Source: an uncultured Clostridia bacterium (GTDB taxonomy: Bacteria > Bacillota > Clostridia > Christensenellales > Borkfalkiaceae). Taken from it: DNA of 64,000 nt. The stretch covers positions 3,413 to 67,412 of the forward strand of contig CAUHGY010000001.1 in assembly GCA_959605945.1 (NCBI GenBank), in the 5' to 3' direction. How positions within the stretch are numbered: the first letter of the stretch is position 1; every line of letters starts with the position of its first letter. Shown piece after piece: positions 18,345 to 47,146 of this stretch. The position numbers and the translations under genes are program-made. The notes under the pieces were generated by a model. That model saw nothing but the letters and a program-made list of their open reading frames with translations, had not been told where the DNA came from and searched no databases.

Positions 18345-18345
18345 A

Positions 18346-26452: not shown

Positions 26453-26481
26453 TTGACATTGAAAAATTAAAATGATAAAAT
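26453..26481 (+). promoter_or_regulatory. Sigma-70-type promoter of T-box operon 1
   Basis: TTGACA (26453-26458), 17-nt spacer ending in TGA, TAAAAT (26476-26481). Confidence 0.65.
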
Positions 26482-26494
26482 ATGACAAAATAAA

Positions 26495-26747
26495 AACGAT
26501 GACGAAGAGTACCCGTTCTAAAAATTTTTCAGAGAGACGGCGGCGGGTGAAAGCCGTTAAAATGTTTGTTCGGGTTTGTAGCTTCCGAGTTGGGAGAAAG
26601 AAAGCTTTCTGCGAGTAGAATTTCCCCGTGCTGACGCGTTAAGTCATAAGGATTGATAGATCCTGAGAGGCAGATTTATCTGCAATTTGAGTGGTACCGC
26701 GGATATTTATTATCCGTCTCAAAGTTATTTTTGAGACGGATTTTTTT
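26495..26747 (+). promoter_or_regulatory. T-box riboswitch leader 1 (transcription attenuation type), putative specifier GUA (Val)
   Basis: K-turn (AAC-GAU-GA...GA-GUU), S-turn AGUA, AG bulge AGAGA, distal loop GGCGGGUGAAA, stem III GCAGAU/AUCUGC, T-box sequence AAUUUGAGUGGUACCGCGG (26684-26702). Terminator CCGTCTCAAA/TTTGAGACGG plus T7 (26714-26747) is mutually exclusive with the antiterminator GAG-UGGUACC-GCGGAUA...UAUCCGU-CUC. Confidence 0.88.
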
Positions 26748-26766
26748 ATCCGTCGAGGAGGTATAA

Positions 26767-28500
26767 ATGCAAAATATTGCCCGCAACAAAGCAGAAAATC
26801 TCAGTTTTTCAAAAATTCTTACTGACAAAAAGAATATGCTCTGCGATAATTTTTATGACAATCAACATAATTGGGTTTACGATAAATTTATAGACGCCGA
26901 AGTCGATCAAAACGGAACTCCCGTATCGGTGACTTTTAAAAATGAAGATAAGTTTAATTTTGCATTTGACATAGTCGATGAACTTGCAGACCGTTATCCG
27001 GATAAACCGGCGCTTCTGCACGTTACCGAAGACGGCGTTGAAACCAGATTTTCATTCCGGGATATGAAGGAACTTTCAGCCCGAGCTGCGAATTATTTCA
27101 AAGCGATCGGGATAAAAAAAGGCGACAGAGTAATGTTGGTTCTCGGAAGGCGTTATCAGTTCTGGTACGCGATGTTGGGCCTTCATAAAATCGGGGCGAT
27201 AGCGCTTCCTGCAATGTGCCAGCTTTTAGAGCATGATTTCGAGTACAGATTTAATTCGGCGGGAGTGTGTGCCGTTATATGTACCGACGGCGGTGACGTC
27301 GCCCTTCACGCTGAACGCGCTGCCGAAAATTGTCCGTGCGTAAAATATAAGTTTATAGTAGGGGCCGAACGAGACGGCTGGCGCAGCTTTGACAGCGAAA
27401 TTTTTAAATATTCGCCTGTTTATGAAAGATCGGAAAATTCGCCTTGCGGGAAAGACATAATGCTGATGTTTTTCACTTCCGGTACAACCGGCTATCCTAA
27501 AATAGCTGCACACAATTACAAATATGCACTCGGGCATTTCCACACTGCCAAATACTGGCATTGCGTGCAGCGTGACGGTCTTCACTTCACTATTTCCGAC
27601 ACCGGTTGGGCAAAAGCCATGTGGGGGAAATTCTACGGTCAATGGATATGCGAATCTGCAATTTTTGTATATGATTTCGATAGATTCAATGCGGCAGATA
27701 TCCTTTCGTTGTTTGCAAAATATAAGATAACCACTTTTTGTGCGCCGCCGACGATGTTGAGAATGATGGTTAAAGAAAATCTCGGAAAATACGATTTATC
27801 ATCCGTAAAACATATGTCGACAGCGGGAGAAGCTCTGAACCCCGAAGTTTACCGCAAGTTTGAAAGTGCAACCGGACTGAAGATTATGGAAGGATTCGGT
27901 CAGACCGAAACGACGATGGTTATAGGCAATATGGCAGGGGCGCCGCACAAGATAGGATCTATGGGCAAACCGGCGCCGATTTATAAAGTAGAACTTTTGA
28001 ATTCCGACGGCAAAAAGGTTGCAGACGGAGAAGCCGGCGAAATAGTTATCAACGTCAAAAACGGTGCTCCGTGCGGATTGTTTTGCGGATATTATAACGA
28101 TAAGGAAAAAACAGACGAAGTATGGCATAACGGTTATTACCATACAGGCGACATGGCATGGAAAGACGAAAGCGGATTTTACTGGTATGTCGGCAGAGCG
28201 GATGACGTCATAAAATCGTCGGGCTACAGAATAGGTCCTTTTGAAATTGAGAGCGTGATAATGGAATTGCCCTACGTTCTTGAATGCGGAGTATCGCCTT
28301 ACCCCGATGAAGTGCGCGGACAGATAGTAAAGGCCAGTGTCGTTTTGACTGCAGGTACAGAGCCTACCGACCAATTGAAAAAAGAAATTCAAAACTATGT
28401 CAAGACGCACACGGCGCCTTATAAATATCCGAGAATAGTGGAGTTTAAAAAAGAACTGCCTAAAACGGTAAGTGGGAAAATACAGAGAAGCAAACTTTAA
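26767..28500 (+). CDS. AMP-forming acyl-CoA synthetase, medium-chain (ACSM-like) subfamily
   Basis: Adenylate-forming motifs FFTSGTTGYPK, EGFGQTET, YHTGD, GRADDVIKSSGYRIGPFEIE, PKTVSGKIQR. GGAGG RBS. Confidence 0.85.
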   Translation: MQNIARNKAENLSFSKILTDKKNMLCDNFYDNQHNWVYDKFIDAEVDQNGTPVSVTFKNEDKFNFAFDIVDELADRYPDKPALLHVTEDGVETRFSFRDMKELSARAANYFKAIGIKKGDRVMLVLGRRYQFWYAMLGLHKIGAIALPAMCQLLEHDFEYRFNSAGVCAVICTDGGDVALHAERAAENCPCVKYKFIVGAERDGWRSFDSEIFKYSPVYERSENSPCGKDIMLMFFTSGTTGYPKIAAHNYKYALGHFHTAKYWHCVQRDGLHFTISDTGWAKAMWGKFYGQWICESAIFVYDFDRFNAADILSLFAKYKITTFCAPPTMLRMMVKENLGKYDLSSVKHMSTAGEALNPEVYRKFESATGLKIMEGFGQTETTMVIGNMAGAPHKIGSMGKPAPIYKVELLNSDGKKVADGEAGEIVINVKNGAPCGLFCGYYNDKEKTDEVWHNGYYHTGDMAWKDESGFYWYVGRADDVIKSSGYRIGPFEIESVIMELPYVLECGVSPYPDEVRGQIVKASVVLTAGTEPTDQLKKEIQNYVKTHTAPYKYPRIVEFKKELPKTVSGKIQRSKL

Positions 28501-28515
28501 TCAGGAGTGGTTTTT

Positions 28516-29316
28516 ATGGAAATAATAGACGCTCACGCACATATTTATCCGCAGAAAATAGCCGCGAAAGCGACTGAGGCTATAGGTGATTTTTACGATA
28601 TAACCATGGAGATGCCTGCAGGCACACCAGAAAAACTTATAGAAATAGGTGCTTCCGCGGGAATAAGCGGTTATCTGGTTCATTCAGTGGCGACCAAAGC
28701 AGGGCAAGTTAAATCCATAAACGATTTTATCATCGAAGAGACCCGTCTTCACAGAGAATTTATCGGATTCATGACTTTGCATCAGGACATGTCGGAAGAA
28801 GAAATATTTTCCGAAATAGAACGTTGCAAAGCTGCGGGGCTGAGAGGCATAAAATTGCATCCGGATTTTCAGAAATTTTATATTGACGGTAAAGATGCGG
28901 AAAAATTTTACCGCGCGCTTTCAATGATTAACGGCGTTTTTCCCGTTCTTTTTCATACCGGAGACAACAGATATGAATTTTCGCGCCCGGAAAGGTTGGC
29001 CAAAGTAGCTGCAAAATATAAAAAACTATATTTTATTGGTGCTCATTTCGGCGGTTACCGATGCTGGGACGATGCGTGGGTATATAAGGGGCTTGATAAC
29101 GTTTATTTTGATACAAGCTCATCTCTTCCGTTTATTTCATCGGAAAGAGCGCGTGAAATTATAGACATGCTTGGTTATGAAAAGTTTTTTTTCGGCGACG
29201 ATTTTCCCATGTGGGATGCAAAAAAAGAACTTGAAAGATTTTTTAAACTAAAACTGTCGGAGAAACAGAATTCTGCCATATTATCCGGAAATTTAAAAAA
29301 TTTACTGGAATTATAA
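28516..29316 (+). CDS. Metal-dependent TIM-barrel amidohydrolase (PF04909-like)
   Basis: N-terminal IIDAHAHIYP (HxH), GIKLHPD, FHTG, GAHFGG, YFDTS, FGDDFPMW. The ATG at 28516 has a GGAG 8 nt upstream. Confidence 0.7.
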   Translation: MEIIDAHAHIYPQKIAAKATEAIGDFYDITMEMPAGTPEKLIEIGASAGISGYLVHSVATKAGQVKSINDFIIEETRLHREFIGFMTLHQDMSEEEIFSEIERCKAAGLRGIKLHPDFQKFYIDGKDAEKFYRALSMINGVFPVLFHTGDNRYEFSRPERLAKVAAKYKKLYFIGAHFGGYRCWDDAWVYKGLDNVYFDTSSSLPFISSERAREIIDMLGYEKFFFGDDFPMWDAKKELERFFKLKLSEKQNSAILSGNLKNLLEL

Positions 29317-29334
29317 ATTTTTGTGGCCAAACAA

Positions 29335-29363
29335 TTGACAAATCAAAGTAAAAGCATTAGAAT
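29335..29363 (+). promoter_or_regulatory. Sigma-70-type promoter of T-box operon 2
   Basis: TTGACA (29335-29340), 17-nt spacer, TAGAAT (29358-29363). Confidence 0.65.
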
Positions 29364-29384
29364 ATATAAAAATTATCATATAAA

Positions 29385-29638
29385 TGCAGTGATGGAAAAT
29401 ACTCGTCAAATTGCGTTTCAGAGAGCCGGCGGCAGGTGAAAGCCGGTATCGCGTTGATGCGTTCTCGTTCCGGAGCAGGAGTTGCGAAAACCGAGATTAC
29501 GTTTTATCAGGTAATATTTGTCGATAGTTACTCCCGGCGGCGCCGTTATACGTTTAAATGAGAGATTGCATATCGCAATAATATGGGTGGTACCGCGGTC
29601 ATTCCGTCCCTGACTTATAAAAAGTCAGGGATTTTTTT
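29385..29638 (+). promoter_or_regulatory. T-box riboswitch leader 2 (transcription attenuation type), putative specifier CUC (Leu)
   Basis: K-turn (UGC-AGU-GA...GA-GCA), AG bulge AGAGA, distal loop GGCAGGUGAAA, stem III AUUGC/GCAAU, T-box AUAUGGGUGGUACCGCGG (29581-29598). Terminator CCCTGACTT/AAGTCAGGG plus T7 (29608-29638) competes with the antiterminator GGG-UGGUACC-GCGG...CCGU-CCC. Confidence 0.88.
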
Positions 29639-29670
29639 AAATATAAAATACTGTTATTTGAGGTTCTGAT

Positions 29671-31080
29671 ATGAAGGAAATAATTGTTAGCGACGTAACG
29701 CTTAAAGAATTAAACCGATCGGACGTTTTGTCGCTCGGGTTTAAAGAGAAGCTGGAGATAGCAAAAAAAATAAGCGAACTTTCCGTAGACGTTATCGAAC
29801 TGTTTCCCGCAGCAGGAAATAAAGCGGATGAAATATTGGTCAAGACCATTTCCGCTTGCATAAATAACAGAATAATTGCCTGTACGGCAGGTTATACCGA
29901 AAACGATCTTAAAAACAATTACGCGCTTATAAGCGGAGCGAAAAATAAACGCATCATAATAAGCATTCCGGTTTCGCCCGTGCAGATAGAATATGTTTTA
30001 AACAAAAAGCCTCAAGCAGTATTGGATTTGCTTGCAGAGCTCACCGAAAAAGCTGCGGAGCTTTGTTCGGATGTGGAAGTCTCGCTCGAAGACGCTACGC
30101 GCGCCGAAACGTCTTTTTTGCAACAGGCACTAAAAACGGCAATCTGCCGCGGAGCTAAAACCGTTACTCTGACAGATGCTGCGGGGCAGATGCTTCCGTC
30201 TGAATTCAAGGAATTCTTAGAGGATATGTATAATGCGGTGCCCGAACTGAAAGACGTGAAACTTGCGGTAATGATTTCCGATGCATATTCTATGGCAAAC
30301 GCCGGCCTTTTTAATGCGGTTGCCGCAGGCGCTGCCGAAGTAAAGGTCTCGGCCGTTGCAAGCCTCGGCGTTGCCAAAACCGAAAATTTCATAAGATCTA
30401 TGGAAACTATCGGCGTTAAAAAAGGCTATGCATGCAACCTGAACAAGACCGGTGCAATGCGAATAATAAAGCAAATAGCTCAAATCGCTGCGGAAAAAAG
30501 CGCTTATACGGCATTCGGCAGCGTAGTTGGCGAAAAAAATGAAGATATAGATAAAAACGTTTCCGAAGTAGAACTCAGCGAAATAATACAGCGGTTAGGT
30601 TATGATCTTGCGCCTGAAGATATTAAAAAGGTTTATTCTGAATTTTCTCTTCTTGCCGAGAAAAAGCAAGTCGGCATAAAGGAACTTGATGCCATAATCG
30701 CGAATACCGCGTTGCAAGTTCCCGCAACTTATTCCATCGAAAATTTTTCTGTCAGCATAAACAATACAGGCGCGGCCATGGCAGGAGTGACTCTTTTGTC
30801 GGACGGTAAACTCACGAGCGGCCTGTCTTACGGCAACGGCTCCATCGACGCGGCTTTTCTGGCTATAGAAAACATAACGGGAAGGCATTTCGATCTTGAC
30901 GATTTTGAAGTTACGGCAGTTACCGAAGGGAAGGAAGCCATGGGGCAGACGGTGATTAAACTCCGCAGCGGCGGAAAACTTTATTCCGGCCGCGGTATAT
31001 CAACCGATATAGTCGGTGCAAGCATAAAAGCTTATGTAAACGCACTCAACAAAATAGTATATGAGGAACAGCACAGATGA
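29671..31080 (+). CDS. 2-isopropylmalate synthase (LeuA) homolog with a degenerate catalytic barrel and a conserved LeuA-dimer/regulatory domain
   Basis: Aligns by eye with LeuA along its full length (EDATR retained). RDGEQ is replaced by KELNR (res 12-16), HxH by M-I-S (res 201-203), and HESGIH is absent. The C-terminal GNGSIDAAFLAIENITG...VTEGKEAMGQ...GRGISTDIVGASIKAYVNALNK is highly LeuA-like. Confidence 0.75.
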   Translation: MKEIIVSDVTLKELNRSDVLSLGFKEKLEIAKKISELSVDVIELFPAAGNKADEILVKTISACINNRIIACTAGYTENDLKNNYALISGAKNKRIIISIPVSPVQIEYVLNKKPQAVLDLLAELTEKAAELCSDVEVSLEDATRAETSFLQQALKTAICRGAKTVTLTDAAGQMLPSEFKEFLEDMYNAVPELKDVKLAVMISDAYSMANAGLFNAVAAGAAEVKVSAVASLGVAKTENFIRSMETIGVKKGYACNLNKTGAMRIIKQIAQIAAEKSAYTAFGSVVGEKNEDIDKNVSEVELSEIIQRLGYDLAPEDIKKVYSEFSLLAEKKQVGIKELDAIIANTALQVPATYSIENFSVSINNTGAAMAGVTLLSDGKLTSGLSYGNGSIDAAFLAIENITGRHFDLDDFEVTAVTEGKEAMGQTVIKLRSGGKLYSGRGISTDIVGASIKAYVNALNKIVYEEQHR

Positions 31081-33590
31081 AACTTTCTTTTTCGACTAAC
31101 GGATGGAATCTGGGATTTTCCCAGCTCGTCAGATTATGCGGCGAAAATAAGATTTCGGGGCTTGAAATACACGATGTGGATTCGCCTTGTTTTCAAAAAG
31201 AGAATCCTTTCGGAAAAAATAATCTGCCAAAAACAAAAAGAATTCTTTTTGAAAGCGGAATAAGCATTTCTTGCCTTGATTCGGTCGGTAACTTCGCTAA
31301 TTTTTCTGCCGAAGAAGAGAATATTGCGGAAATCGTAAAACTTATAGAACTATCAAAAGAACTCGGCTGTAAATACGTCAGACTTCACGCTTACAATATA
31401 GAGGGTTCAGAGATTTCTGCAGAAGATTGTAATTCCCGTTTGATGATAATTTTGCCGCGGCTTATAGAGTCTGCAAAGAAAAACGATGTGACGCTGCTTT
31501 TTGAATCAATGGGCATTTATGCGGATACCGCAAAACTTGCAGGATTATTGAATTCTTTTGCCAGCGATAACTTTGCGGCGCTGTGGGATATTCACCATAC
31601 TAATTTTTATGCAAAAGAAAGTCCGGAATCGTCGGTTAAAAATCTTGGAAAGCACATAAAACATCTGCACATTAAAGACAGCTCTCTGATTGGCGGAAAA
31701 CTTTCCTTTTGCCTGTTGGGTGAAGGCGATTTGCCCATAAAACAGGTATTTAACAGCCTGCGCTCTATAAATTACGAAGGGTTCGTATCGCTTGAACTTA
31801 TGCAGGAATGGTTGGAAACCATCGGCGAACCGGACATCGTTTTACCGCAGTTTGCAAGCTATATGGGAACATTCGAGAGCGTGCCTTCCTGGCAGAATAA
31901 GCTCTATGACAATAAGAGAAAGACGGGTAAATTTATATGGGAGAAAGAAACGCTTATCGAACGCACTTTTTCTCAGGTTCTTGATAAAGTAACGGAAGAA
32001 TTTCCCGACCAGATAGCTTTTAAATACACTACGCTCGATTATACCCGAACATATTCGGAATTCCGCGACGAAGTAGATATTGTTGCGAGAGCGCTGATGG
32101 CTATAGGCGTTCGTAAAGGCGACCACGTTGCGGTGTGGGCAACAAATGTTCCTGAATGGTATCTTACGTTTTGGGCGACAACCAAAATCGGCGCCGTGCT
32201 TGTTACCGTGAACACCGCTTATAAAGTACATGAGGCGGAATATCTGTTGAAACAGTCGGATACTCACACGCTGGTTATGATTAAGGGCTGGAGAGATTCC
32301 GATTACGCCGGTATAATAAACGAACTCTGTCCCGAACTGAAAGATTTGAAAAAAGGCGAATCCCTGCACGCAAAGAGACTTCCGTTTCTTCGCAATGTCG
32401 TGACGGTGGGATTCAGGCAGAAAGGGTGTCTTGAATTTTCCGAAATGATGGAGTTAGCGAAAAACGTTCCGCAGGAAAAAATGCAGATGGTTGCAAATAC
32501 CGTAGGGGTGAACGACGTCTGTAATATGCAGTATACTTCCGGTACCACGGGATTTCCTAAAGGCGTCATGCTGACGCATTATAATATTGTTAATAACGGG
32601 AAATGCATAGGCGACAGAATGGATCTTTCGACAGCCGACAGAATGATGATACAGGTTCCTATGTTCCACTGTTTCGGAATGGTACTTGCCATGACGGCGT
32701 CAATCACGCACGGAGTTTCCATATATCCGTTGCCGTATTTTTCGCCGAAGCCTGCGCTTGCATGCATAAATCAGGAGCAGATAACGTGTTTCCACGGCGT
32801 TCCGACTATGTTTATAGCTATGCTCGCCCATGACGATTTCCCGAAAACAGACTTTTCCCATATGCGTACGGGCATAATGGCGGGAAGTCCCTGTCCGGTA
32901 GCCGTAATGCAGGATGTAATAGATAAAATGCATATGACGGAGATAACTATAGTCTACGGGCAGACCGAAGCATCGCCCGGGTGCACGATGTCGAGCACGG
33001 AAGACAGTATAGAAGTCCGTGTTGAAACGGTCGGCAGACCCCTTCCGAGCATAGAATGTAAAATCGTTGATCCGGAAACCAACAGAGAAGTGCCTGATAA
33101 CACGGTCGGAGAGTTTGTTGCACGCGGTTATAACCTTATGAAAGGCTATTATAAAATGCCTAACGAGACGGCAAAAGCAATAGACTCGGAAGGGTGGCTG
33201 CACACAGGCGACCTTGCTCTCAGAATGCCGGACGGCAATTTCCGAATAACCGGCAGACTTAAGGATATGATAATCCGTGGCGGGGAGAATCTTTATCCGA
33301 AAGAAATAGAAGATTTTCTCTATACTCACCCAAAGGTGTCGGACGTGCAGGTTGTCGGCGTGCCTGACGAAAAATACGGTGAAGAGGCGTATGCCTATGT
33401 AATTCTGAAAGAGGGCGAAACCCTTACGGAAAATGAATTGCGCGAATATTGCGTAGCAAGCATTGCAAAACATAAAGTACCGAGATATTTTGATTTTGTA
33501 AGCAGTTTTCCGATGAACGTCGCAGGGAAAATATTGAAATATAAAATGCGGGAAGACGCTGCGGAAAAAATAAAGAATTTAAAAAAATAA
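31077..33590 (+). CDS. Fusion: xylose-isomerase-like TIM barrel (sugar phosphate isomerase/epimerase family) plus AMP-dependent acyl-CoA ligase (FadD-like)
   Basis: Residues 1 to ~270 show the PF01261-type pattern (LFES, WDIHH, HLHIKD, GEGDLP, GFVSLEL). Residues ~290-837 have YTSGTTGFPKGVMLTH, YGQTE, GWLHTGDLA, GRLKDMIIRGGENLYPKEIE, GKILK. Single ORF with an ATGA overlap with the upstream gene. Confidence 0.8.
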   Translation: MKLSFSTNGWNLGFSQLVRLCGENKISGLEIHDVDSPCFQKENPFGKNNLPKTKRILFESGISISCLDSVGNFANFSAEEENIAEIVKLIELSKELGCKYVRLHAYNIEGSEISAEDCNSRLMIILPRLIESAKKNDVTLLFESMGIYADTAKLAGLLNSFASDNFAALWDIHHTNFYAKESPESSVKNLGKHIKHLHIKDSSLIGGKLSFCLLGEGDLPIKQVFNSLRSINYEGFVSLELMQEWLETIGEPDIVLPQFASYMGTFESVPSWQNKLYDNKRKTGKFIWEKETLIERTFSQVLDKVTEEFPDQIAFKYTTLDYTRTYSEFRDEVDIVARALMAIGVRKGDHVAVWATNVPEWYLTFWATTKIGAVLVTVNTAYKVHEAEYLLKQSDTHTLVMIKGWRDSDYAGIINELCPELKDLKKGESLHAKRLPFLRNVVTVGFRQKGCLEFSEMMELAKNVPQEKMQMVANTVGVNDVCNMQYTSGTTGFPKGVMLTHYNIVNNGKCIGDRMDLSTADRMMIQVPMFHCFGMVLAMTASITHGVSIYPLPYFSPKPALACINQEQITCFHGVPTMFIAMLAHDDFPKTDFSHMRTGIMAGSPCPVAVMQDVIDKMHMTEITIVYGQTEASPGCTMSSTEDSIEVRVETVGRPLPSIECKIVDPETNREVPDNTVGEFVARGYNLMKGYYKMPNETAKAIDSEGWLHTGDLALRMPDGNFRITGRLKDMIIRGGENLYPKEIEDFLYTHPKVSDVQVVGVPDEKYGEEAYAYVILKEGETLTENELREYCVASIAKHKVPRYFDFVSSFPMNVAGKILKYKMREDAAEKIKNLKK

Positions 33591-33603
33591 AAGGAGAACG
33601 GTC

Positions 33604-34668
33604 ATGGAGATAAAAATACAGAAAGCCGAAAAACTGAAAGAAAAACCCGATTTTTCGAATCTGGGTTTCGGTAAATATTTTACCGATCATATGTTTGTTA
33701 TGGATTATTCGGACAAGGAAGGCTGGCACGACGCGAGAATAATTCCTTTCGGGTATATTCCGATTCATCCTGCAAGTACCGTACTGCACTACGGTGCGGA
33801 AATATTTGAGGGTATGAAGGCATATAAGACCGAAGACGGTTATCAGATGTTCAGACCTTATGAAAATGCAAAGCGTTTCAACAATTCCGCAGAGAGAATG
33901 TGTTTGCCGCAGATTGACGAGGAATTATTCGTTAAATCGATAACCGAGCTTATAAACATCGATTACAGCTGGATTCCCGACTCCGAAGGCGCATCGCTTT
34001 ATATTCGCCCCTTCATGTTCGGAAATGACGAAAGCCTTGGAGTTCACGCTGTTCACAATGCGACTTATGTTGTCATTCTTTCGCCGGTCGGAAGCTATTA
34101 TAAAGAAGGTCTGAATCCCGTGAAAATCACTATAGAAGATGAAGACGTGAGAGCAGTCCGCGGCGGTACAGGCTATGCAAAGTGCGGCGGCAATTATGCG
34201 GCCAGCATGCGTGCGGGGCAGCGCGCCGAGAAAAAAGGTTTTACTCAGGTGCTTTGGCTTGACGGCGTGGAAAGAAAATATATCGAAGAAGTCGGCGCCA
34301 TGAACGTTATGTTCAAAATAGACGGGGAAATCGTTACTCCCAAACTTACGGGATCGGTTCTTCCCGGCATAACGAGAAAATCTTGCATTGAAATGCTCAG
34401 AAGCTGGGGTTATAATGTTAATGAAAGATTGTTGTCTGTCGACGAACTTATAGGCGCTGCCGAAAACGGAAAGCTTGAAGAAGCCTGGGGAACAGGCACG
34501 GCTGCAGTGGTTTCTCCCATAGGATTGCTGTCGTATAAAGGCAAAGATCACGTGGTGTCGCAAAATAAAATAGGCGCGCTTACGCAGAAACTTTATGATG
34601 AGCTTACGGGAATGCAGTGGGGTAAAAAACCCGATGCTTTCGGCTGGTGTTATAAGGTAAAAATTTGA
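33604..34668 (+). CDS. ilvE: Branched-chain amino acid aminotransferase (fold-type IV, long form)
   Basis: 354 aa. Typical IlvE blocks FGKYFTDHMF, LHYGAEIFEGMKAY, YIRPFMFG, GGTGYAKCGGNYA, EVGAMNVMF, VLPGITR, GTAAVVSPI. Confidence 0.9.
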   Translation: MEIKIQKAEKLKEKPDFSNLGFGKYFTDHMFVMDYSDKEGWHDARIIPFGYIPIHPASTVLHYGAEIFEGMKAYKTEDGYQMFRPYENAKRFNNSAERMCLPQIDEELFVKSITELINIDYSWIPDSEGASLYIRPFMFGNDESLGVHAVHNATYVVILSPVGSYYKEGLNPVKITIEDEDVRAVRGGTGYAKCGGNYAASMRAGQRAEKKGFTQVLWLDGVERKYIEEVGAMNVMFKIDGEIVTPKLTGSVLPGITRKSCIEMLRSWGYNVNERLLSVDELIGAAENGKLEEAWGTGTAAVVSPIGLLSYKGKDHVVSQNKIGALTQKLYDELTGMQWGKKPDAFGWCYKVKI

Positions 34669-35336
34669 TGAACGCAAAACGGATAACGCTGTTTGCCGGG
34701 CACTACGGCAGCGGCAAAACCAATGTGGCGGTAAACTTTGCGTGCAGCCTTGCGAAAGACGGTAAGAGAACGGTAATTTACGATCTCGATATAGTAAATC
34801 CGTATTTCAGGACGATAGACGCGAAAAAATTTCTCGACGAATGCGGCGTTGAACTTGTTGTATCGCCGTACGCCGAAACTAATGTGGATATACCGGCAAT
34901 GAATGCCGCGTCTTACCGTATGGTGGACGATCTTGAAAGTTATGCCGTCGTGGATATCGGGGGCGACGACCGCGGTGCGTATGCACTCGGCAGATTTTCC
35001 GAAAAGATAAAAGCCGAAAATAATTATGATATGCTGCTTGTAATCAACAGATTTCGCCCTGAAACACGTACTGTTGAAAACCTTGCGGAAATTAAAGACG
35101 AAATAGAAAGAGCAGCGAAAATAAAATTTACGGGTATTGTGGATAATTCCAATCTCGGAGCCGAAACAACGCTGGAAACGATTGAAGAAAACAGGGCTTT
35201 TGCCCTTGAATCGTCGGAAAAATTCATGTTACCTGTTGTGTTTACTTCGATAAACAGCGAGCTGTTAAAAAATCGAAAAAATATCAGAGAAGACATATTG
35301 CCCGTCAGTTTGATAAAGTACGGCGATTGGCAATAG
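34668..35336 (+). CDS. P-loop NTPase of unknown function (SIMIBI-like)
   Basis: Walker A GHYGSGKT near the N-terminus and a Walker-B-like VVDIGGDD. TGATG overlap with the ilvE stop. Sits immediately upstream of the OFOR genes. Confidence 0.55.
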   Translation: MNAKRITLFAGHYGSGKTNVAVNFACSLAKDGKRTVIYDLDIVNPYFRTIDAKKFLDECGVELVVSPYAETNVDIPAMNAASYRMVDDLESYAVVDIGGDDRGAYALGRFSEKIKAENNYDMLLVINRFRPETRTVENLAEIKDEIERAAKIKFTGIVDNSNLGAETTLETIEENRAFALESSEKFMLPVVFTSINSELLKNRKNIREDILPVSLIKYGDWQ

Positions 35337-35346
35337 AGGAGAAAAA

Positions 35347-35553
35347 ATGGCGAAAGTTACTTTTAACGTTGAACGCTGCAAGGGATGCGGACTGTGTGAA
35401 ATGGTTTGTCCGAAACATATTATTTCTCTTGCACAGGAAAAGATTAACACGAAGGGCTATCATCCTGCTGAAGTTACAGATGCAAATAAGTGCATAGGGT
35501 GCGCATTTTGCGCCACTATGTGTCCGGACAGCGTAATTACGGTGGAAAAATAG
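35347..35553 (+). CDS. 2-oxoacid:ferredoxin oxidoreductase delta subunit (2x[4Fe-4S] ferredoxin)
   Basis: CKGCGLCEMVCP and CIGCAFCATMCP. 68 aa. Positioned before the alpha subunit. Confidence 0.85.
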   Translation: MAKVTFNVERCKGCGLCEMVCPKHIISLAQEKINTKGYHPAEVTDANKCIGCAFCATMCPDSVITVEK

Positions 35554-35562
35554 AGGTGAAAT

Positions 35563-36633
35563 ATGTCAGATAAAGTTTTAATGAAAGGAAACGAGGCGCT
35601 GGCAGAAGCTGCCATTATGGCGGGATGCAGATATTATTTCGGCTATCCTATAACTCCGCAGACCGAAGTCGCCGCATATATGTCAAGACGCATGCCTAAA
35701 ATCGGCGGAACGTTCTTGCAGGCGGAATCGGAAATTGCCGCTATCAACATGGTTATAGGCGTATCGTCATGCGGAAAACGCGTCATGACGTCGAGTTCAA
35801 GTCCAGGAATATCTTTAAAAAGCGAAGGCATTTCTTATCTTGCCGGCTGTGAACTTCCCGCACTGATCGTAAATGTGCAGAGAGGAGGTCCGGGGCTCGG
35901 TGGAATTCAACCTTCTCAGTCAGACTATTTCCAGGCAACAAAAGGCGGCGGGCACGGAGACTATAAACTTATAGTTCTTGCACCGGCCTCCATCCAGGAA
36001 ATGGTCGACCTTACATTCAAAGGTTTTGACCTTGCGGATAAATACAGAATGCAGACCATGATTCTTGCGGACGGAACTATGGGGCAGATGATGGAGCCGG
36101 TAAGCTTAAATCTCGGCGAAGTGAAAGAATACGATAAAAGTTGGGCTACGACGGGAACGGCTAACCACGACGGCAGAAACGTAGTGAATTCACTCTCGCT
36201 TTCGCCTGCGCAGCTTGAAGAATGGAATATTTCGAGATACGAAAGATATAAAATAGTCGAACGCGACGAGGTTATGTTTGAAGAATTCATGATGGATGAT
36301 GCCGATTATTGCATAGTTGCATTCGGAATAGCCGCAAGAATTTCCAAAAACGCTATTCTCGAAGCGAGAAAACAAGGTCTTAAAGCGGGAATGATCCGTC
36401 CTATTACTTTATGGCCGTTCCCCAAAAACGTTCTCAAAAAAGCGGCAGAAAAAGTCAAGGCGTTTTTATCGGTCGAACTCAATATGGGGCAGATGATCGA
36501 TGATGTGAAACTTGCCGTTGAATGTTCAAAACCCGTTTATCTTTGCAACCGCACCGGCGGAATGCTTGTTTCCCCGCAGGAAGTGCTTGATAAACTTAAA
36601 GAAATTGACAAAGGAGAAGCAAAACAATGGTAG
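35563..36633 (+). CDS. vorB: 2-oxoacid:ferredoxin oxidoreductase alpha subunit, VorB-like
   Basis: LMKGNEALAEAAIMAGCRYYFGYPITPQTE, QAESEIAAINM, SSSSPGISL, RGGPGLGGIQPSQSDYFQATKGGGHGDY. Substrate assignment rests on context only. Confidence 0.8.
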   Translation: MSDKVLMKGNEALAEAAIMAGCRYYFGYPITPQTEVAAYMSRRMPKIGGTFLQAESEIAAINMVIGVSSCGKRVMTSSSSPGISLKSEGISYLAGCELPALIVNVQRGGPGLGGIQPSQSDYFQATKGGGHGDYKLIVLAPASIQEMVDLTFKGFDLADKYRMQTMILADGTMGQMMEPVSLNLGEVKEYDKSWATTGTANHDGRNVVNSLSLSPAQLEEWNISRYERYKIVERDEVMFEEFMMDDADYCIVAFGIAARISKNAILEARKQGLKAGMIRPITLWPFPKNVLKKAAEKVKAFLSVELNMGQMIDDVKLAVECSKPVYLCNRTGGMLVSPQEVLDKLKEIDKGEAKQW

Positions 36634-37373
36634 TTTTCGGAAAAACAAAGGGACTTACCGATAATCCGTTGCATTATTGTCCGGGTTGTACGCATGGTAT
36701 AATTCACAGACTTGTGGCGGAAGTTCTCGAAGAACTCGGCGTGCTCGGAAAAACGGTCGGAGTTGCGTCGGTAGGATGTTCGGTCTTTTCCTATAATTAT
36801 TTTAATTGCGATATGATACAGGCGGCTCACGGAAGAGCGCCGGCCGTTGCGACAGGGGCCAAAAGAGCAAATCCCGACAACATAGTTTTTACCTATCAGG
36901 GTGACGGCGATCTCGCTGCGATAGGTACGGCTGAAACCGTTCATTCGGCTGCCCGCAACGAAAATATAACGGTGATTTTTGTCAACAACGCCATTTACGG
37001 CATGACCGGCGGACAGATGGCGCCTACCACGCTTCCGAATCAGGTCACTCAGACTTCGCCTTACGGCAGAGATGTCACAGTGGTAGGTTACCCTGTAAAG
37101 GTATGTGAGATGCTTTCTCAGGTCGACGGTGCATCTTATCTCGAACGCGTGGCAGTAAACAATATCGCTAATATCAGGAAAGCTAAAAAAGCTATTTATC
37201 ACGCTTTTAAAAATCAGATGGAAGGTAAAGGATTTTCTCTTATAGAAGTTCTTTCAACATGTCCCACCAACTGGGGGCTTTCTCCTAAGGAAGCAATAAA
37301 ATGGCTTGACGACAATCTTGAAACTTATTATCCTCTCGGAGTATATAAGGACAAATACAAGGAGGAAAAGTAA
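36627..37373 (+). CDS. vorA: 2-oxoacid:ferredoxin oxidoreductase beta subunit (TPP-binding)
   Basis: YCPGCTHG, GDGD...NNAIYGMTGGQ (TPP/Mg motif). Overlaps the alpha-subunit gene. Confidence 0.85.
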   Translation: MVVFGKTKGLTDNPLHYCPGCTHGIIHRLVAEVLEELGVLGKTVGVASVGCSVFSYNYFNCDMIQAAHGRAPAVATGAKRANPDNIVFTYQGDGDLAAIGTAETVHSAARNENITVIFVNNAIYGMTGGQMAPTTLPNQVTQTSPYGRDVTVVGYPVKVCEMLSQVDGASYLERVAVNNIANIRKAKKAIYHAFKNQMEGKGFSLIEVLSTCPTNWGLSPKEAIKWLDDNLETYYPLGVYKDKYKEEK

Positions 37374-37913
37374 ATGGCAAAAACCACCAAGATTCTGATT
37401 GCCGGTTTCGGCGGACAGGGGATTCTGTTTGCGGGAAAAGCCTTGGCGTATACCGGGCTTAAAGCCGACATGGAAGTCAGCTGGCTTCCTTCTTACGGCC
37501 CCGAAATGCGCGGGGGAACGGCAAATTGCAGCGTGACGCTTTCAGATACTGCTATCGGATCTCCTATAGTCGATAAACCCGATATTCTGATAGCTATGAA
37601 TCTGCCTTCGCTTGAAAAATATTTTTACGAAACGGAAAAAGGCGGATACATTATATTCGACAGTTCACTGATTATCAAGCAGGATACCAGAGACGATGTT
37701 ATCACCGTTGGTATTCCTGCGACAAAGATGGCAAGTGATAACGGGCTTGATGGACTGGCGAATATGATAATGTTGGGTAAGGTAATCAAAGAAACCGGCA
37801 TCCTTACATTAGAACAGGTAAAAAACAGTCTATCGCAAATGGTTCCGGCTAAAAAGGCGGACCTTTTACAAAAAAATATCAAGGCGATAGAATTGGGTTA
37901 TAATTTTCAATAG
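37374..37913 (+). CDS. 2-oxoacid:ferredoxin oxidoreductase gamma subunit
   Basis: [29 protein letters not shown]. The start abuts the beta-subunit stop. Confidence 0.85.
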
Positions 37914-37922
37914 GGGGTTATT

Positions 37923-38474
37923 ATGAAAGAGCAGTTGAAGGCAATGGGCCAAAGGCTTACGGAGTTAAGGGAAATAAACGGCGTTTCTGTCAAAGAAATT
38001 GCCGAAAGACTCAAAATGACCGAAGAAGAATATACCGCATATGAAAACGGCGACAGAGATTTTTCTTTCAGTTTCATGTTTAATGTTGCCACGATTTTCG
38101 GTGTTGACGTATTCAATCTGCTTTCAGGTAACTCTCCTAAATTGAGCGATTGCGCTGTAGTAAGGAAAGGGCAGGAATTTTTTATTAAAAAGGAAGGCTC
38201 ATATAACTACAAACATCTCGCTTATACGTTTAAGAATAAAAAAGCGGAACCGTTTTTCGTCGTGAGTATGCCGGGCGAGGAAGATACTGACCTTCACAGC
38301 CATGAAGGACAGGAATTTAATTTCGTTCTTTCCGGCAGCATGCTTTTCAAGATCGGAGATATGTCGTACGAATTGAATAAAGGCGACAGCGTTTATTTCA
38401 ATTCGTCGCTCAAACACGGCATAAAAGTGCTCGGCGACAAACCCGTTAAATTTCTTGCAGTCGTAATGAAATAA
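37923..38474 (+). CDS. XRE-family HTH plus cupin-domain transcriptional regulator
   Basis: N-terminal HTH (LTELREINGVSVKEIAERLKMTEEEYTAYENG). C-terminal cupin (HSHEGQEFNFVLSG...GDSVYFNSSLKHG). Confidence 0.8.
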   Translation: MKEQLKAMGQRLTELREINGVSVKEIAERLKMTEEEYTAYENGDRDFSFSFMFNVATIFGVDVFNLLSGNSPKLSDCAVVRKGQEFFIKKEGSYNYKHLAYTFKNKKAEPFFVVSMPGEEDTDLHSHEGQEFNFVLSGSMLFKIGDMSYELNKGDSVYFNSSLKHGIKVLGDKPVKFLAVVMK

Positions 38475-38502
38475 TTCAATTGACGCCGTTACGGAGTTAA
38501 AT

Positions 38503-40197
38503 ATGGTTATTTACGAAAAATATACGGGAAGAAACAGGGATTCATTTAAAGATTTAAAAGATTTAAGAGAAAACTTCAAAATAACGTACGGCGAAGATTT
38601 TAACTTTGCCTATGACGTGATGGATGTGTTGGCAAAAGAAAAACCGGACAAACTTGCCATGCTTTGGCTTTCCGATAAGAAAGAAGAAAAGCGTTTTACT
38701 TTTGCCGATATGAAATATTGGTCGGATAAAACCGCATGCTATCTCAAGAGCATGGGCATAAAGAAAGGGGACAAGGTCCTGCTTGTACTGAAGCGCAGCT
38801 ATTTATTTTGGTTTTGTATGCTTGCCATGCATAAAATAGGTGCGATACCCATTCAAGCGACCAATATGCTTGTGGGAAAAGACTTTACTTACCGATGTAA
38901 TAAAGCCGGTATACGTGCGGTCATCATTACCGGTGACGGCGATGTCAGCGAACATTTTGACACGGTTGAAGCTCAATGCACAACCGTAGAGATGAAATTT
39001 GTCACAAAACATAAGGATGCCGGAAAAGGCTGGATTGATTTTGAAAGCGGGCTTATGGCTGCATCGTCTGATTGGAAAAAACCTGTCGGAAAAGATGCTG
39101 TCAAAGCAAAAGACATTATGTTTATGGCGTTTTCGTCAGGCACAACGGGTTATCCCAAAATGATAATGCACGATTTTACTTATCCGTTAGGGCATATCGT
39201 GACGGGATTGTTCTGGCATCGCGTGGAAGACGGAGGACTTCACTTCACTATATCCGACACGGGGTGGCTGAAATCGCTTTGGGGTAAATTTTATGGACAA
39301 TGGTTCGGCGAATCGGCAATACTCGTGTACGATTTCAATAAATTTGACGGGGCCGATATATTGGATGTGCTGTCAAAATATAAAGTCACCACTTTCTGTG
39401 TTCCGCCTACCATGTATAGATTTATGCTGCAAAACGACGTCAAATCTTACGACCTGTCATCGCTTAAACATTGTTGTTCTGCGGGAGAGGCCCTCAATGC
39501 GGATATTTTTAACAAGTGGAAAGATGCTACCGGGTTGGAAATATACGAGGGATTCGGTCAGACCGAAACGACGCTTTGTCTCGGCACTCTTTACGGTTTT
39601 TCAAAGCCGATTTCGGGTTTTATAGGCAAACCCGTTGCGGGATACGATTTAATGGTGGCGGGAAAAGACGGTAAAGAATGTCTTCCCGGCGAAGCCGGAG
39701 AAATCTGCATAAAAGCAAGTCCGGAAAACAAACCGTGCGGTTTGATGTGCGGTTATTATAACGACGAAGAGTCAACTGCGTACAGTTGGCGCGGCGGGTG
39801 TTTCCATACGGGCGACACCGCATATGTAGACGAATACGGCAACTATAAATATATCGGTCGTAACGATGACGTCATAAAGTCGTCAGGATACCGCATCGGA
39901 CCTTTCGAAGTGGAAAGCGTTCTCATGGAACATCCCGCGGTTCTCGAAGTGGCCGTTACCGGAGTGCCTGACGAAAAAAGAGGTTTCAGCGTAAAGGCAA
40001 CGATAGTTCTTAAAAAAGGTTATGTTCCGAGCAGCGAGCTTGTTGTTGAGCTTCAAAATTACGTCAAAACAAACACGGCGCCTTATAAATATCCGCGAGT
40101 GGTGGAATTTGTAGAATCACTTCCAAAAACTATCAGCGGCAAAATAAGACGTACTGAAATACGTGAGAATGACATGTTGAAATACGGAAAAAAATAA
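38503..40197 (+). CDS. AMP-forming acyl-CoA synthetase, ACSM-like (paralog of 26767-28500)
   Basis: FSSGTTGYPK, EGFGQTET, FHTGD, GRNDDVIKSSGYRIGPFEVE, PKTISGKIRR. Roughly half the residues are identical to the first ligase by eye. Confidence 0.85.
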   Translation: MVIYEKYTGRNRDSFKDLKDLRENFKITYGEDFNFAYDVMDVLAKEKPDKLAMLWLSDKKEEKRFTFADMKYWSDKTACYLKSMGIKKGDKVLLVLKRSYLFWFCMLAMHKIGAIPIQATNMLVGKDFTYRCNKAGIRAVIITGDGDVSEHFDTVEAQCTTVEMKFVTKHKDAGKGWIDFESGLMAASSDWKKPVGKDAVKAKDIMFMAFSSGTTGYPKMIMHDFTYPLGHIVTGLFWHRVEDGGLHFTISDTGWLKSLWGKFYGQWFGESAILVYDFNKFDGADILDVLSKYKVTTFCVPPTMYRFMLQNDVKSYDLSSLKHCCSAGEALNADIFNKWKDATGLEIYEGFGQTETTLCLGTLYGFSKPISGFIGKPVAGYDLMVAGKDGKECLPGEAGEICIKASPENKPCGLMCGYYNDEESTAYSWRGGCFHTGDTAYVDEYGNYKYIGRNDDVIKSSGYRIGPFEVESVLMEHPAVLEVAVTGVPDEKRGFSVKATIVLKKGYVPSSELVVELQNYVKTNTAPYKYPRVVEFVESLPKTISGKIRRTEIRENDMLKYGKK

Positions 40198-40203
40198 ATA
40201 TCG

Positions 40204-40230
40204 GCCGCCATATATGGCGGCTGTATTTTT
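40204..40230 (+). terminator. Rho-independent terminator ending T-box operon 2
   Basis: Palindrome GCCGCCATATATGGCGGC followed by TGTATTTTT. Confidence 0.75.
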
Positions 40231-40269: not shown

Positions 40270-40298
40270 TTGACATATATTTTATAATATGCTACTAT
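40270..40298 (+). promoter_or_regulatory. Sigma-70-type promoter of the his operon
   Basis: TTGACA (40270-40275), 17-nt spacer, TACTAT (40293-40298). Confidence 0.6.
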
Positions 40299-40390
40299 AT
40301 TAGCGTGTTAAAGTGATAAAGCAAATGACGATGCAAGGAAAGACATAAGAGAGTTCAAGCATTTAATAAGAATAGCAGGTAATAACAGTC

Positions 40391-41485
40391 ATGGAAATTA
40401 AAAACAAATTACTCACCGGAGAAGAAAAAATTTCTTTTCGTTTAAGAAGCCTTTATGCGGGTTTCGGCTATTCATGTTTTAAGATGAGTAAATTCGAAGA
40501 ATACGATCTGTACAGTCGGAACAAAGATTTTCTTGTTTCCGACAGGGTGCTTACGTTTACAGATACTGACGGAAAACTTATGGCCTTAAAACCCGACGTT
40601 ACGTTATCGATTGTAAAAAATTACGACGGAACGGCCGGCGATGTACAGCGTGTTTACTATAATGAAAACGTTTACAGAGTATCGGAGAACACAAAAAAGT
40701 ATAAAGAGATTATGCAGGCGGGTCTCGAATGTATCGGCGCCCTGACAGATTATAATCTTTTCGAGGTTCTGTTTCTTGCCGCAGAAAGTCTTAATGTTAT
40801 ATCCGAGAGAAGTGTTCTTATATTGTCGCATCTCGGCGTTATATCCGCAATTTTGGAAAAAGTCGGATGCGCTGAAGATGAGCTTCTTTTAAATATTTCG
40901 GAAAAAAATCTCCACGGAGTGGATGAAATATGCAAACGATGCGCTATCGACGGAAGTATTTATGAGATTCTGAAGCTTGTAACCGCATCTTCCTGGGAAG
41001 CGGATGATATATTGCAGAAATTAAGAAAACTTTCTTCCGATAAACTTCTTTTAAAATCTCTTGACGAAATAGAACGTGCGGCACGGTTTTTAAAATCCAA
41101 TTCAAAAGTGCCGGTACGCGTGGATTTTTCCGTAGTAAATGATATGAATTACTATAACGGTCTTGTTTTCAGAGGATATGTCAAAGAAATTCCCGCGCGT
41201 GTTCTTAGCGGCGGACAATACGATAAACTTATGGATAAAATGTCCAAAAATGCCAAAGCTGCAGGTTTTGCCGTTTATCTCGACCTTGCGGAAAGATTAA
41301 AGACCGAAGATTATCCCGATGTTGACGCCGTTCTGCTTTATGACGAGAACATCGACGCGGAAGACATAATTAAAGAAGTAAAAAAATACAGAGAAGCAGG
41401 CAAAAGCGTTGCGGTTTGCGCTGACGTACCGAATAAAATAACCTTTGGGGAAATTATTCGTATAAGCGAGAAAAAATTATCATGA
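40391..41485 (+). CDS. hisZ: ATP phosphoribosyltransferase regulatory subunit
   Basis: HisRS-like catalytic-core paralog without an anticodon-binding domain. Directly precedes a short-form hisG. Confidence 0.85.
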   Translation: MEIKNKLLTGEEKISFRLRSLYAGFGYSCFKMSKFEEYDLYSRNKDFLVSDRVLTFTDTDGKLMALKPDVTLSIVKNYDGTAGDVQRVYYNENVYRVSENTKKYKEIMQAGLECIGALTDYNLFEVLFLAAESLNVISERSVLILSHLGVISAILEKVGCAEDELLLNISEKNLHGVDEICKRCAIDGSIYEILKLVTASSWEADDILQKLRKLSSDKLLLKSLDEIERAARFLKSNSKVPVRVDFSVVNDMNYYNGLVFRGYVKEIPARVLSGGQYDKLMDKMSKNAKAAGFAVYLDLAERLKTEDYPDVDAVLLYDENIDAEDIIKEVKKYREAGKSVAVCADVPNKITFGEIIRISEKKLS

Positions 41486-42138
41486 AAGAGATATTGAACG
41501 TTGCTCTTCCCAAGGGGAGACTTGGAGAAAAAGTATATAAACTTTTTGAAAAATCAGGATATTCCTGTCCGGAAATATTAGATTCATCCACAAGAAAGCT
41601 TATATTTGAAAATCCGGAAAAAGGTATAAGATATTTTTGGGTTAAACCTTCCGATGTAAGCATATATGTTGAACGCGGAGCGGCCGATATAGGAATTGCG
41701 GGTAAAGATATTCTGATGGAATATAAACCGCGGGTTTTTGAATTGCTCGATCTGAAACTCGGTAAATGCCGCCTTGCGGTTGCCGCAAAAAAAGGTTTTA
41801 GGGACAAACGTGAATATACCCTTCGTGTGGCTACAAAATTTCCAAATATAACTACGGAATACTACGCCGAAAAATGCCGCGATGTCGACATAATAAAACT
41901 CAACGGATCTATAGAACTTGCACCTATTCTTAATTTGTCGGATGTTATATTGGATATAGTCGAAACAGGCACTACTCTTTTGGAAAATAATCTTGAACCT
42001 ATCGAGAAAGTAGCTGACGTTTCCGCAAGGCTTATCGCAAATACCGCGTCGTTTCAGTTTAAAAACGGAGAAATAACCGAAATACTTGACAATCTGAGAA
42101 AATATACGGAGGGAAGCGGCGTTGATAAAAATTTTTAA
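41482..42138 (+). CDS. hisG: ATP phosphoribosyltransferase, short form
   Basis: 218 aa. LALPKGRL-type N-terminus (VALPKGRLGE), DIVETGTTL. Confidence 0.92.
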   Translation: MKEILNVALPKGRLGEKVYKLFEKSGYSCPEILDSSTRKLIFENPEKGIRYFWVKPSDVSIYVERGAADIGIAGKDILMEYKPRVFELLDLKLGKCRLAVAAKKGFRDKREYTLRVATKFPNITTEYYAEKCRDVDIIKLNGSIELAPILNLSDVILDIVETGTTLLENNLEPIEKVADVSARLIANTASFQFKNGEITEILDNLRKYTEGSGVDKNF

Positions 42139-43399: not shown

Positions 43400-43400
43400 T

Positions 43401-45049: not shown

Positions 45050-45054
45050 AGCAA

Positions 45055-47143: not shown

Positions 47144-47146
47144 TCT

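Follow-up and report, generated by a model that had tools for sequence, protein, structure and literature searches.

We describe two adjacent T-box-led operons in a 64-kb stretch of DNA from an uncultured Clostridia bacterium (contig CAUHGY010000001.1 of assembly GCA_959605945.1; hereafter the window, meaning the whole stretch analysed, in whose coordinates positions are given), which probably specify a tRNA-charging-controlled salvage of exogenous branched short-chain acids into branched-chain amino acids (BCAAs). This reading is supported by comparative genomics and by the biochemistry of homologs, and its basis is genomic, not experimental. The first operon holds two genes and the second ten, and each has its own promoter-like site and T-box terminator; within the ten-gene operon no intergenic gap exceeds 28 nt and three gene pairs overlap, by 4, 4 and 7 nt. 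An initial annotation had proposed that an acyl-CoA ligase, a 2-oxoacid synthase and an aminotransferase are placed here under starvation control for anabolic use. That proposal now finds support in the conservation of these modules across genomes, in the pairing of T-box specifiers with ligase types, and in the substrate preferences of the characterized ligases MbcS and Macs.

We infer the substrates of the ligases, the reductive direction of the 2-oxoacid:ferredoxin oxidoreductase (OFOR) and induction by starvation, which together would give the following route. When tRNA-Val (GUA) or tRNA-Leu (CUC) is uncharged, the matching leader would form its antiterminator and allow read-through. The AMP-forming ligases would then activate the acids: lig1 would act on isobutyrate, a TIM-barrel::ligase fusion (TIMlig) on isovalerate, and lig3 probably on 2-methylbutyrate. 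The OFOR, VorDABG, would reductively carboxylate the resulting acyl-CoAs with reduced ferredoxin and CO2, yielding 2-oxoisovalerate, 2-oxoisocaproate and 3-methyl-2-oxovalerate, and IlvE would transaminate these 2-oxoacids to valine, leucine and isoleucine. The features of the locus are as follows.

26453..26481, + strand: promoter-like site P1 (TTGACA-17-TAAAAT with an extended -10 TG; 11/12 matches in a consensus scan)
26490..26724, + strand: T-box leader 1 (RF00230, 116.1 bits, E 5.5e-25; GUA at 26578-26580, UGGU at 26692-26695)
26712..26741, + strand: intrinsic terminator of T-box 1 (13-bp stem and T run; overlaps the 3' half of the antiterminator)
26767..28500, + strand: lig1, an MbcS/Macs-like AMP-forming short branched-chain acyl-CoA ligase (putative substrate isobutyrate)
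28507..29316, + strand: amh, an Amidohydro_2 metal-dependent protein of hydrolase/decarboxylase fold (Pfam)
29335..29363, + strand: promoter-like site P2 (TTGACA-17-TAGAAT; consensus scan)
29380..29614, + strand: T-box leader 2 (RF00230, 99.0 bits, E 1.3e-20; CUC at 29464-29466, UGGU at 29588-29591)
29606..29632, + strand: intrinsic terminator of T-box 2 (terminator scan)
29671..31080, + strand: leuAx, a LeuA-derived pseudoenzyme with HMGL-like and LeuA_dimer domains (catalytic metal ligands lost)
31077..33590, + strand: TIMlig, an AP_endonuc_2 TIM barrel (aa 1-285) fused to a PRK12583-like AMP-binding ligase (putative substrate isovalerate)
33604..34668, + strand: IlvE, a class IV branched-chain aminotransferase (PRK13357, NCBIfam equivalog)
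34665..35336, + strand: SIMIBI-class P-loop NTPase (Walker A GHYGSGKT)
35347..35553, + strand: OFOR delta subunit, 2x[4Fe-4S] (two CxxCxxCxxxCP motifs)
35563..36633, + strand: OFOR alpha subunit, VorB type (PRK07119, 542 bits against a cut-off of 399)
36627..37373, + strand: OFOR beta subunit, thiamine pyrophosphate (TPP)-binding (motif GDG...NN; cluster cysteines)
37374..37913, + strand: OFOR gamma subunit (Pfam/NCBIfam models)
37923..38474, + strand: helix-turn-helix (HTH, XRE type) and cupin protein of PuuR-like architecture (domain match)
38503..40197, + strand: lig3, a second MbcS/Macs-like ligase with its own tree group (guessed substrate 2-methylbutyrate)
40202..40223, + strand: intrinsic terminator at the operon end (9 bp, 7 of them GC, then a T run)

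The two T-boxes, their putative valine and leucine specificities, the promoters ahead of both leaders and the strong closing terminator had all been proposed in the initial annotation, and each was recovered here. A cmscan search of the entire 64-kb window against Rfam at gathering thresholds returned two matches in all, both to the T-box family RF00230 and both above its gathering score of 93 (116.1 and 99.0 bits). Promoter-like sites P1 and P2 precede the leaders, and the locus ends with the terminator at 40202-40223. Along the 3' side of the specifier loop both leaders keep one register, in which the codon is followed by a purine, a 4-bp stem, a single base and the K-turn GAG (UGA-N-GAAG...GUA-G-CUUC-C-GAG in leader 1; UGA-U-GGAA...CUC-G-UUCC-G-GAG in leader 2). 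Read in this way, the specifier is GUA (Val) in leader 1 and CUC (Leu) in leader 2. The leaders also carry AGAGAG and GGUGAAAG, the Stem I AGAGA and distal-loop features of RF00230. The T-box bulge is UGGU in both, which fits tRNA-Val, -Leu and -Ile because all three have A73 as discriminator base. The 5' arms of the two terminators (26712-26741 and 29606-29632) double as the 3' strand of the T-box helix, making terminator and antiterminator mutually exclusive. T-box leaders turn genes on when the cognate tRNA is uncharged, and the genes they control serve the supply of the cognate amino acid.

We surveyed relatives of the locus in one genome per GTDB species, which gave 593 candidate stretches; 80 loci (L001 on) were analysed, and the counts reported are lower bounds. 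The full-length TIMlig fusion is present in all 80 loci analysed. The gene set recurs as modules in at least 80 species-level genomes. The carriers are nearly all uncultured Clostridia from rumen, hind gut, human gut and digesters, and their genomes bear the labels Oscillospiraceae, Acutalibacteraceae or 'Ruminococcus sp.'; the assembly GCA_900198705.1 is one genome with the locus. Among the cultured organisms that have it are Anaerobacterium chartisolvens (DSM 27016), a Dehalobacter and Candidatus Formimonas warabiya. When twelve window proteins were mapped onto the loci by tblastn, an identical ten-gene order emerged in L001, L003, L004, L006, L008 and L009. The other loci hold two modules of varying order, one of leuAx-TIMlig, usually with amh, and one of HTH-cupin, an MbcS-like ligase, the P-loop NTPase, vorDABG and ilvE. 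Outside Clostridia, TIMlig homologs (61-63% identity) lie on two contigs binned as Lentisphaeria (L020 and L053), which could reflect mis-binning or horizontal transfer.

The T-box specifiers of these loci follow the type of ligase downstream. We located T-boxes by the conserved GGUGGUACCGCG core and took specifiers from the K-turn register rule; about nine leaders whose automatic parse failed or was wrong were read by eye, L064 stayed unparsed and L043 was ambiguous (CUG or AUC). Rfam confirmed the T-box calls in every locus tested, some of them at 85-92 bits, below the gathering score, with E <=5e-17. Directly before leuAx or TIMlig, the T-box specifier is a Leu codon in 48 of 49 loci (CUC, in one case CUG), the remaining one being unparsed. 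This count takes in L012, where one Leu T-box precedes P-loop-vorDABG-ilvE-leuAx-TIMlig-amh as a self-contained Leu operon, and the stand-alone TIMlig genes under a Leu T-box in L046, L048, L051, L062, L068 (Ca. Formimonas warabiya), L071, L072 and L076. Before MbcS-like ligases, the specifier is AUC (Ile) in 11 loci and GUA (Val) in 7, including the window, with L043 again ambiguous. The rule is not biased towards BCAA codons, because a leader at 2635-2938 of L048, which precedes unrelated genes about 7 kb upstream of the Leu-T-box TIMlig of that locus, reads as a Trp T-box with specifier UGG and bulge UGGC. The specifier codons, like the RNA elements, the gene families, their synteny and the specifier/ligase correlation itself, are direct observations.

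This pairing agrees with what is known of the ligase families. The precursor acids of isoleucine and valine are alpha-branched, and isovalerate, the precursor of leucine, is beta-branched. The closest solved structure to lig1 is Macs of Methanosarcina acetivorans (PDB 3ETC, E 1.5e-184 over residues 61-575), of which 2-methylbutyrate is the preferred substrate (PMC10455477). For both lig1 and lig3 the best NCBIfam model is Staphylococcus aureus MbcS (NF047394; 429.8 and 414.8 bits), an enzyme that selectively activates 2-methylbutyrate and isobutyrate and uses isovalerate poorly (PMC10026030). Leucine would thus need a ligase of a different family, because isovalerate is a poor substrate for MbcS, and the ligase part of TIMlig is PRK12583-like (701 bits, NCBIfam), belonging to a family other than MbcS/Macs. 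The adenylation motifs of lig1 and lig3 are intact, including the A10 lysine (PKT(V/I)SGKI). In a neighbour-joining tree, Val-gated and Ile-gated ligases fall mostly into separate groups, with L073 an outlier; lig1 lies with the Val-T-box group, and lig3 in a third group that comes only from window-type operons. The 2-methylbutyrate specificity of lig3 is guessed by elimination only. The pairing of specifier with ligase and the biochemistry of the homologs are independent lines of evidence that agree, and this is our main reason for accepting an anabolic interpretation.

Known physiology fits the proposed route as well. Allison, Bryant and co-workers reportedly established in the 1960s that rumen bacteria and methanogens make BCAAs from branched short-chain acids by reductive carboxylation. 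M. ruminantium requires 2-methylbutyrate, which has been attributed to reductive carboxylation for isoleucine (PMC2812497). That requirement and the classical rumen labelling are both as the proposed route would have it.

Rumen bacteria put labelled isovalerate into leucine and lipids alike, and the labelled lipids point to another account of the ligases, in which they salvage branched acids as fatty-acid primers when BCAAs are scarce, sparing the amino acids and leaving VorDABG and IlvE a secondary part. In this account it would count that lig1 and lig3 are closest to MbcS, whose shown role is primer supply (PMC10026030), and that TIMlig stands alone under a Leu T-box, with neither vor nor ilvE adjacent, in L046, L048, L068 and L072. 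However, IlvE and the OFOR lie inside the same T-box transcription unit in the window and in many genomes, including the Leu-only operon of L012, and a one-to-one pairing of amino-acid specifier with ligase is what amino-acid supply predicts. Primer supply is also not exclusive of an amino-acid role, the acyl-CoA being a branch point. We therefore consider it unlikely as the explanation of the locus; lipid-primer use is probably an additional fate of the acyl-CoAs rather than an alternative one.

For the enzymes proposed to act after the ligases, family models and motifs were examined. IlvE passes two equivalog cut-offs (PRK13357, 473.9 bits against 307; TIGR01123, 381.6 against 250), and the OFOR has the complete four-subunit domain set, with POR_N and PFOR_II in alpha, TPP-binding in beta, POR in gamma and 2x[4Fe-4S] in delta. 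The VorB subfamily model PRK07119 scores 542 bits on alpha against a cut-off of 399, and the cofactor motifs are intact in delta (two CxxCxxCxxxCP) and beta (GDG...NN and cysteines). The annotation of an IlvE and a VorB-like alpha subunit thus held against curated cut-offs. OFORs are reversible, and only the name of the family and the setting with T-boxes and IlvE suggest that this one would prefer branched-chain 2-oxoacids or acyl-CoAs and run reductively.

Since IlvE with an OFOR is equally the oxidative route, the pair could in principle serve catabolism, oxidizing BCAAs to acyl-CoAs in a Stickland or fermentative manner with the ligases reversed or used for some other purpose. A T-box that switches on at uncharged tRNA is, however, the opposite of what a degradative operon needs. 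AMP-forming ligases would waste the thioester energy, the locus encodes no phosphotransacylase/kinase or ADP-forming synthetase, and across genomes the ligase types keep to amino-acid specifiers of their own. We regard a catabolic role as very improbable, indeed scarcely tenable.

The OFOR genes have a constant neighbour. The P-loop NTPase gene directly precedes vorD wherever both genes are found, and with low confidence we suggest that its product is a maturation or assembly factor of the OFOR. The protein has an ordinary Walker A (GHYGSGKT) and two cysteines, neither of them conserved; a NifH-like ATP-driven electron donor was considered and rejected, given the ordinary Walker A and the lack of a conserved cysteine pair. 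Its matches in the PDB (ArsA, MinD and FleN) cover the Walker A region only. A strong promoter-like site, though a consensus match only, lies inside the 3'-terminal part of ilvE, some 250 nt ahead of the P-loop gene (34388-34416, TTGAAA-17-TATAAT, 11/12); from it the OFOR genes could be expressed independently of the T-box.

The first gene of the ten-gene operon had been annotated as a degenerate LeuA homolog, and alignment with Neisseria meningitidis LeuA (3rmj) bears this out: the catalytic motif RDGEQ is replaced by KELNR, and HxH by MIS. The NCBIfam LeuA model scores 274 bits, against an equivalog cut-off of 532. The catalytic metal site is lost in 49 of 49 orthologs examined, and in the same set the N-terminal barrel is poorly conserved and the LeuA_dimer regulatory domain highly conserved, including its GDGPIDAAF motif. 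With these replacements, leuAx cannot function as a LeuA. There is an overlap between the leuAx stop codon and the TIMlig start, and we propose, with low confidence, that leuAx may be a leucine-sensing partner of the isovalerate ligase.

A second gene with an HMGL-like domain lies elsewhere in the window (13763-15154), directly after an aspartate-aminotransferase-like gene, the two spanning 12565-15154. It was considered as a true LeuA and rejected, as it has no LeuA_dimer domain and its best match is a weak one to homocitrate synthase (147 bits against 463). Its product may be a Re-citrate-synthase-type enzyme, and the gene is no evidence for a canonical leucine pathway.

The TIM domain fused to the isovalerate ligase matches PF01261 (E 2.8e-26) and is confidently folded in an AlphaFold2 prediction (pLDDT 92), with Foldseek TM-scores of 0.7-0.8 to Art22, UlaE and IolI. 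Its neighbours in PDB sequence, profile and Foldseek searches are generic keto-sugar isomerases and epimerases only, at 14-22% identity; a literature search on Art22, the top structural match, gave nothing relevant. Its metal site, E143/D171/H198/E240 (Glu-Asp-His-Glu), is invariant in 32 close relatives, and in a wider set of 82 orthologs, 14 no longer have D171 and 13 no longer have E240. Among the 120 TIMlig protein clusters listed at >=64% identity, all have the same three Pfam domains and none an informative name. The Amidohydro_2 protein keeps all its metal ligands as an invariant HxH/H/H/D, and its nearest PDB structures are the uncharacterised BB4693 and LigW/ACMSD-type decarboxylases. 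Its gene usually directly follows TIMlig in the Leu module; in the window it instead stands behind the Val-gated lig1.

These proteins raise the question of whether the leucine precursor is isovalerate at all. The TIM domain, the Amidohydro_2 protein and the LeuA-like protein might process some other compound, whose product or an intermediate the ligase would activate ahead of VorDABG and IlvE. Such a scheme would give work to the TIM metal site, which is kept in all close relatives on a fold like that of keto-sugar isomerases and epimerases, and to the fully retained metal ligands of the Amidohydro_2 protein, and it would make sense of leuAx, TIMlig and amh as a tight three-gene module under a Leu T-box in many genomes. 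Yet D171 and E240 of the TIM site are each lost in about 15% of orthologs, the catalytic metal site of the LeuA-like protein is gone family-wide, amh in the window follows the Val ligase and not the Leu ligase, and the stand-alone TIM-ligases have neither partner. Nor could we name a compound that fits these folds. We judge a different precursor improbable and keep isovalerate as the putative substrate of TIMlig.

We next turn to the protein encoded ahead of lig3, which had been annotated as an XRE-cupin regulator. The HTH and cupin domains are indeed present, but the role of a simple operon regulator is too narrow, since the same HTH(XRE)-cupin unit is fused in frame to the N-terminus of an MbcS-like ligase in about 20 loci, in open reading frames (ORFs) of 739-787 aa (for example L025:13631-15901, L031:754, L042:1525 and L011:13972). 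Because of this fusion in many genomes, the HTH-cupin protein would be a functional partner of the ligase and not only a regulator of the operon. The window lineage has it as a gene of its own ahead of lig3, and lig1 has no HTH-cupin. It possibly works with the ligase in the manner of BirA; with low confidence, we suggest that it is a sensor or regulator of MbcS-like ligases, the counterpart of leuAx for the isovalerate ligase. Operator palindromes sought near P1, P2 and the candidate site before the HTH-cupin gene gave none common to these sites, only AT-rich repeats at P1.

Several observations weigh against the salvage reading. Both MbcS-like ligases miss the MbcS equivalog cut-off of 850 bits by a wide margin (429.8 for lig1, 414.8 for lig3), and from these scores they appear to be relatives within the MbcS subfamily, not equivalogs. 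The VorB model names a subfamily only and does not establish 2-oxoacid specificity. In about one third of loci, a group that includes operon-internal modules and divergent leuAx genes, a search out to 400 nt from the Leu module showed no T-box. The digester metagenome-assembled genome (MAG) lineage of L001 and L005 has the ten genes in the same order with no T-box; in L001 (7672-8615) and L005 a DUF4097 gene ends 40 nt ahead of leuAx. In the window lineage, the vor and ilvE genes lie only behind the Leu T-box, so that starvation for Val alone would switch on lig1 and amh but not the carboxylase, and VorDABG and IlvE would then depend on leaky read-through or an internal promoter (the candidate at 34388-34416). 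Finally, leuAx, the TIM domain, the Amidohydro_2 protein and the P-loop NTPase are conserved yet superfluous to a three-step scheme, so the real chemistry, at least for leucine, may differ. These four parts have no assigned role; the initial annotation had counted at least four such member genes.

The four extra parts might be accommodated by a more elaborate form of the salvage reading, which we consider rather doubtful, in which the route is doubly controlled and protected for fidelity by ligase-specific protein sensors, removal of wrong products and an ATP-dependent partner of the OFOR. The sensor of the isovalerate ligase could be leuAx, keeping only the leucine-binding regulatory domain, together with the fused TIM barrel; that of the isobutyrate and 2-methylbutyrate ligases could be the HTH-cupin domain, by analogy with BirA. 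Butyrate and valerate, abundant in gut and rumen, could give norvaline and norleucine by the proposed route, and the Amidohydro_2 protein, the TIM domain or both could remove such wrong products. The P-loop NTPase could be a dedicated ATP-dependent partner of the 2-oxoacid synthase. Were this form true, recruited pseudoenzymes would regulate the enzymes of an amino-acid salvage pathway, a class of regulation that would be new.

Around the two operons the window holds further genes. A complete-looking his operon (40270-48599; hisZ and hisG to a PHP-domain phosphatase) starts right past the locus terminator and has its own promoter-like site; the Rfam scan of the window detected no T-box there. 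At 9653-12528, a 599-aa ORF that fuses DUF1385 to a PrmC-like methyltransferase domain stands immediately ahead of the release factor 1 gene and overlaps it. Two ORFs, of 203 and 177 aa, come after the gene of a DUF5685 protein (18280-20333), and another ORF, of 194 aa, lies at 22268-22852; none of these three ORFs has a Pfam match at E <=1e-8.

The initial annotation knew of no described T-box regulon of this composition, and our searches of the open-access literature likewise turned up no account of a T-box together with VOR, an acyl-CoA ligase or reductive carboxylation, which is weak evidence; a 2008 in-silico T-box survey mentions no CoA or oxidoreductase genes. What is new is that a known switch, the T-box, would control a known chemistry, reductive carboxylation, through a previously undefined gene set. 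Its unusual parts are the LeuA-derived pseudoenzyme, the TIM::ligase fusion, the HTH-cupin::ligase fusions and the VOR-linked P-loop NTPase.

If the salvage reading is true, named genes can be given to a pathway that has been known since the 1960s from biochemistry alone. Isobutyrate, isovalerate and 2-methylbutyrate are needed by or beneficial to many rumen and gut Clostridia, and are hence fed to dairy cattle, and the searchable literature does not define, for these bacteria, which genes underlie the labelling results of 60 years ago. As a T-box specifier names the amino acid for each ligase, three ligases, an oxoacid synthase and an aminotransferase receive assignments that can be tested directly. 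The pair of T-box and TIMlig would be a genomic marker predicting branched-acid cross-feeding in metagenomes, and T-box control would extend to a CO2-fixing, ferredoxin-dependent salvage route. The four conserved, unexplained proteins, including the LeuA-derived pseudoenzyme and two unusual ligase fusions, are good targets for biochemistry.

The individual proteins can be set against known systems. LeuA shares with leuAx the HMGL-like TIM barrel and the conserved LeuA_dimer domain, and leuAx, like many leuA genes, stands behind a Leu T-box; the leuAx family as a whole, however, has other residues in place of the Arg/Asp/Glu catalytic motif and of the HxH metal ligands. MbcS and Macs belong to the same ligase subfamily as lig1 and lig3, and the alpha-branched preference of both known enzymes matches the Val and Ile T-boxes. 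MbcS, in contrast, feeds lipid synthesis (PMC10026030), it is not under T-box control as far as its papers tell, and neither MbcS nor Macs has the N-terminal HTH-cupin domain of many lig1 relatives. BirA likewise joins an HTH DNA-binding domain to an adenylate-forming enzyme, as related genomes do here, but has no sequence relationship to the HTH-cupin::ligase proteins. The HTH-cupin architecture matches that of PuuR, with DNA binding and ligand putative for the window protein.

For the locus as a whole, two comparisons matter most. The classical route of rumen bacteria and methanogens has the same chemistry as the one proposed, in which the acid becomes an acyl-CoA, CO2 and reduced ferredoxin turn this into a 2-oxoacid, and the 2-oxoacid becomes the amino acid; its habitat matches too, most related loci being from rumen and hind-gut MAGs. 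That route is a matter of physiology and enzymology with no genes assigned in accessible sources, whereas the window proposes a gene set and its regulation, and has extra conserved proteins beyond the classical scheme. The known T-box regulons of Firmicutes (the ilv-leu operon, BCAA transporters and aminoacyl-tRNA synthetases) share their leader architecture with both window leaders, namely K-turn, specifier loop, AGAGA and distal-loop motifs, UGGN bulge and alternative terminator and antiterminator, and the switch would follow the same logic, with uncharged cognate tRNA turning supply genes on. They differ in what is switched: the known regulons control the acetolactate/isopropylmalate pathway, transporters and synthetases, whereas that of the window controls acyl-CoA ligases, a ferredoxin-dependent 2-oxoacid oxidoreductase and IlvE.

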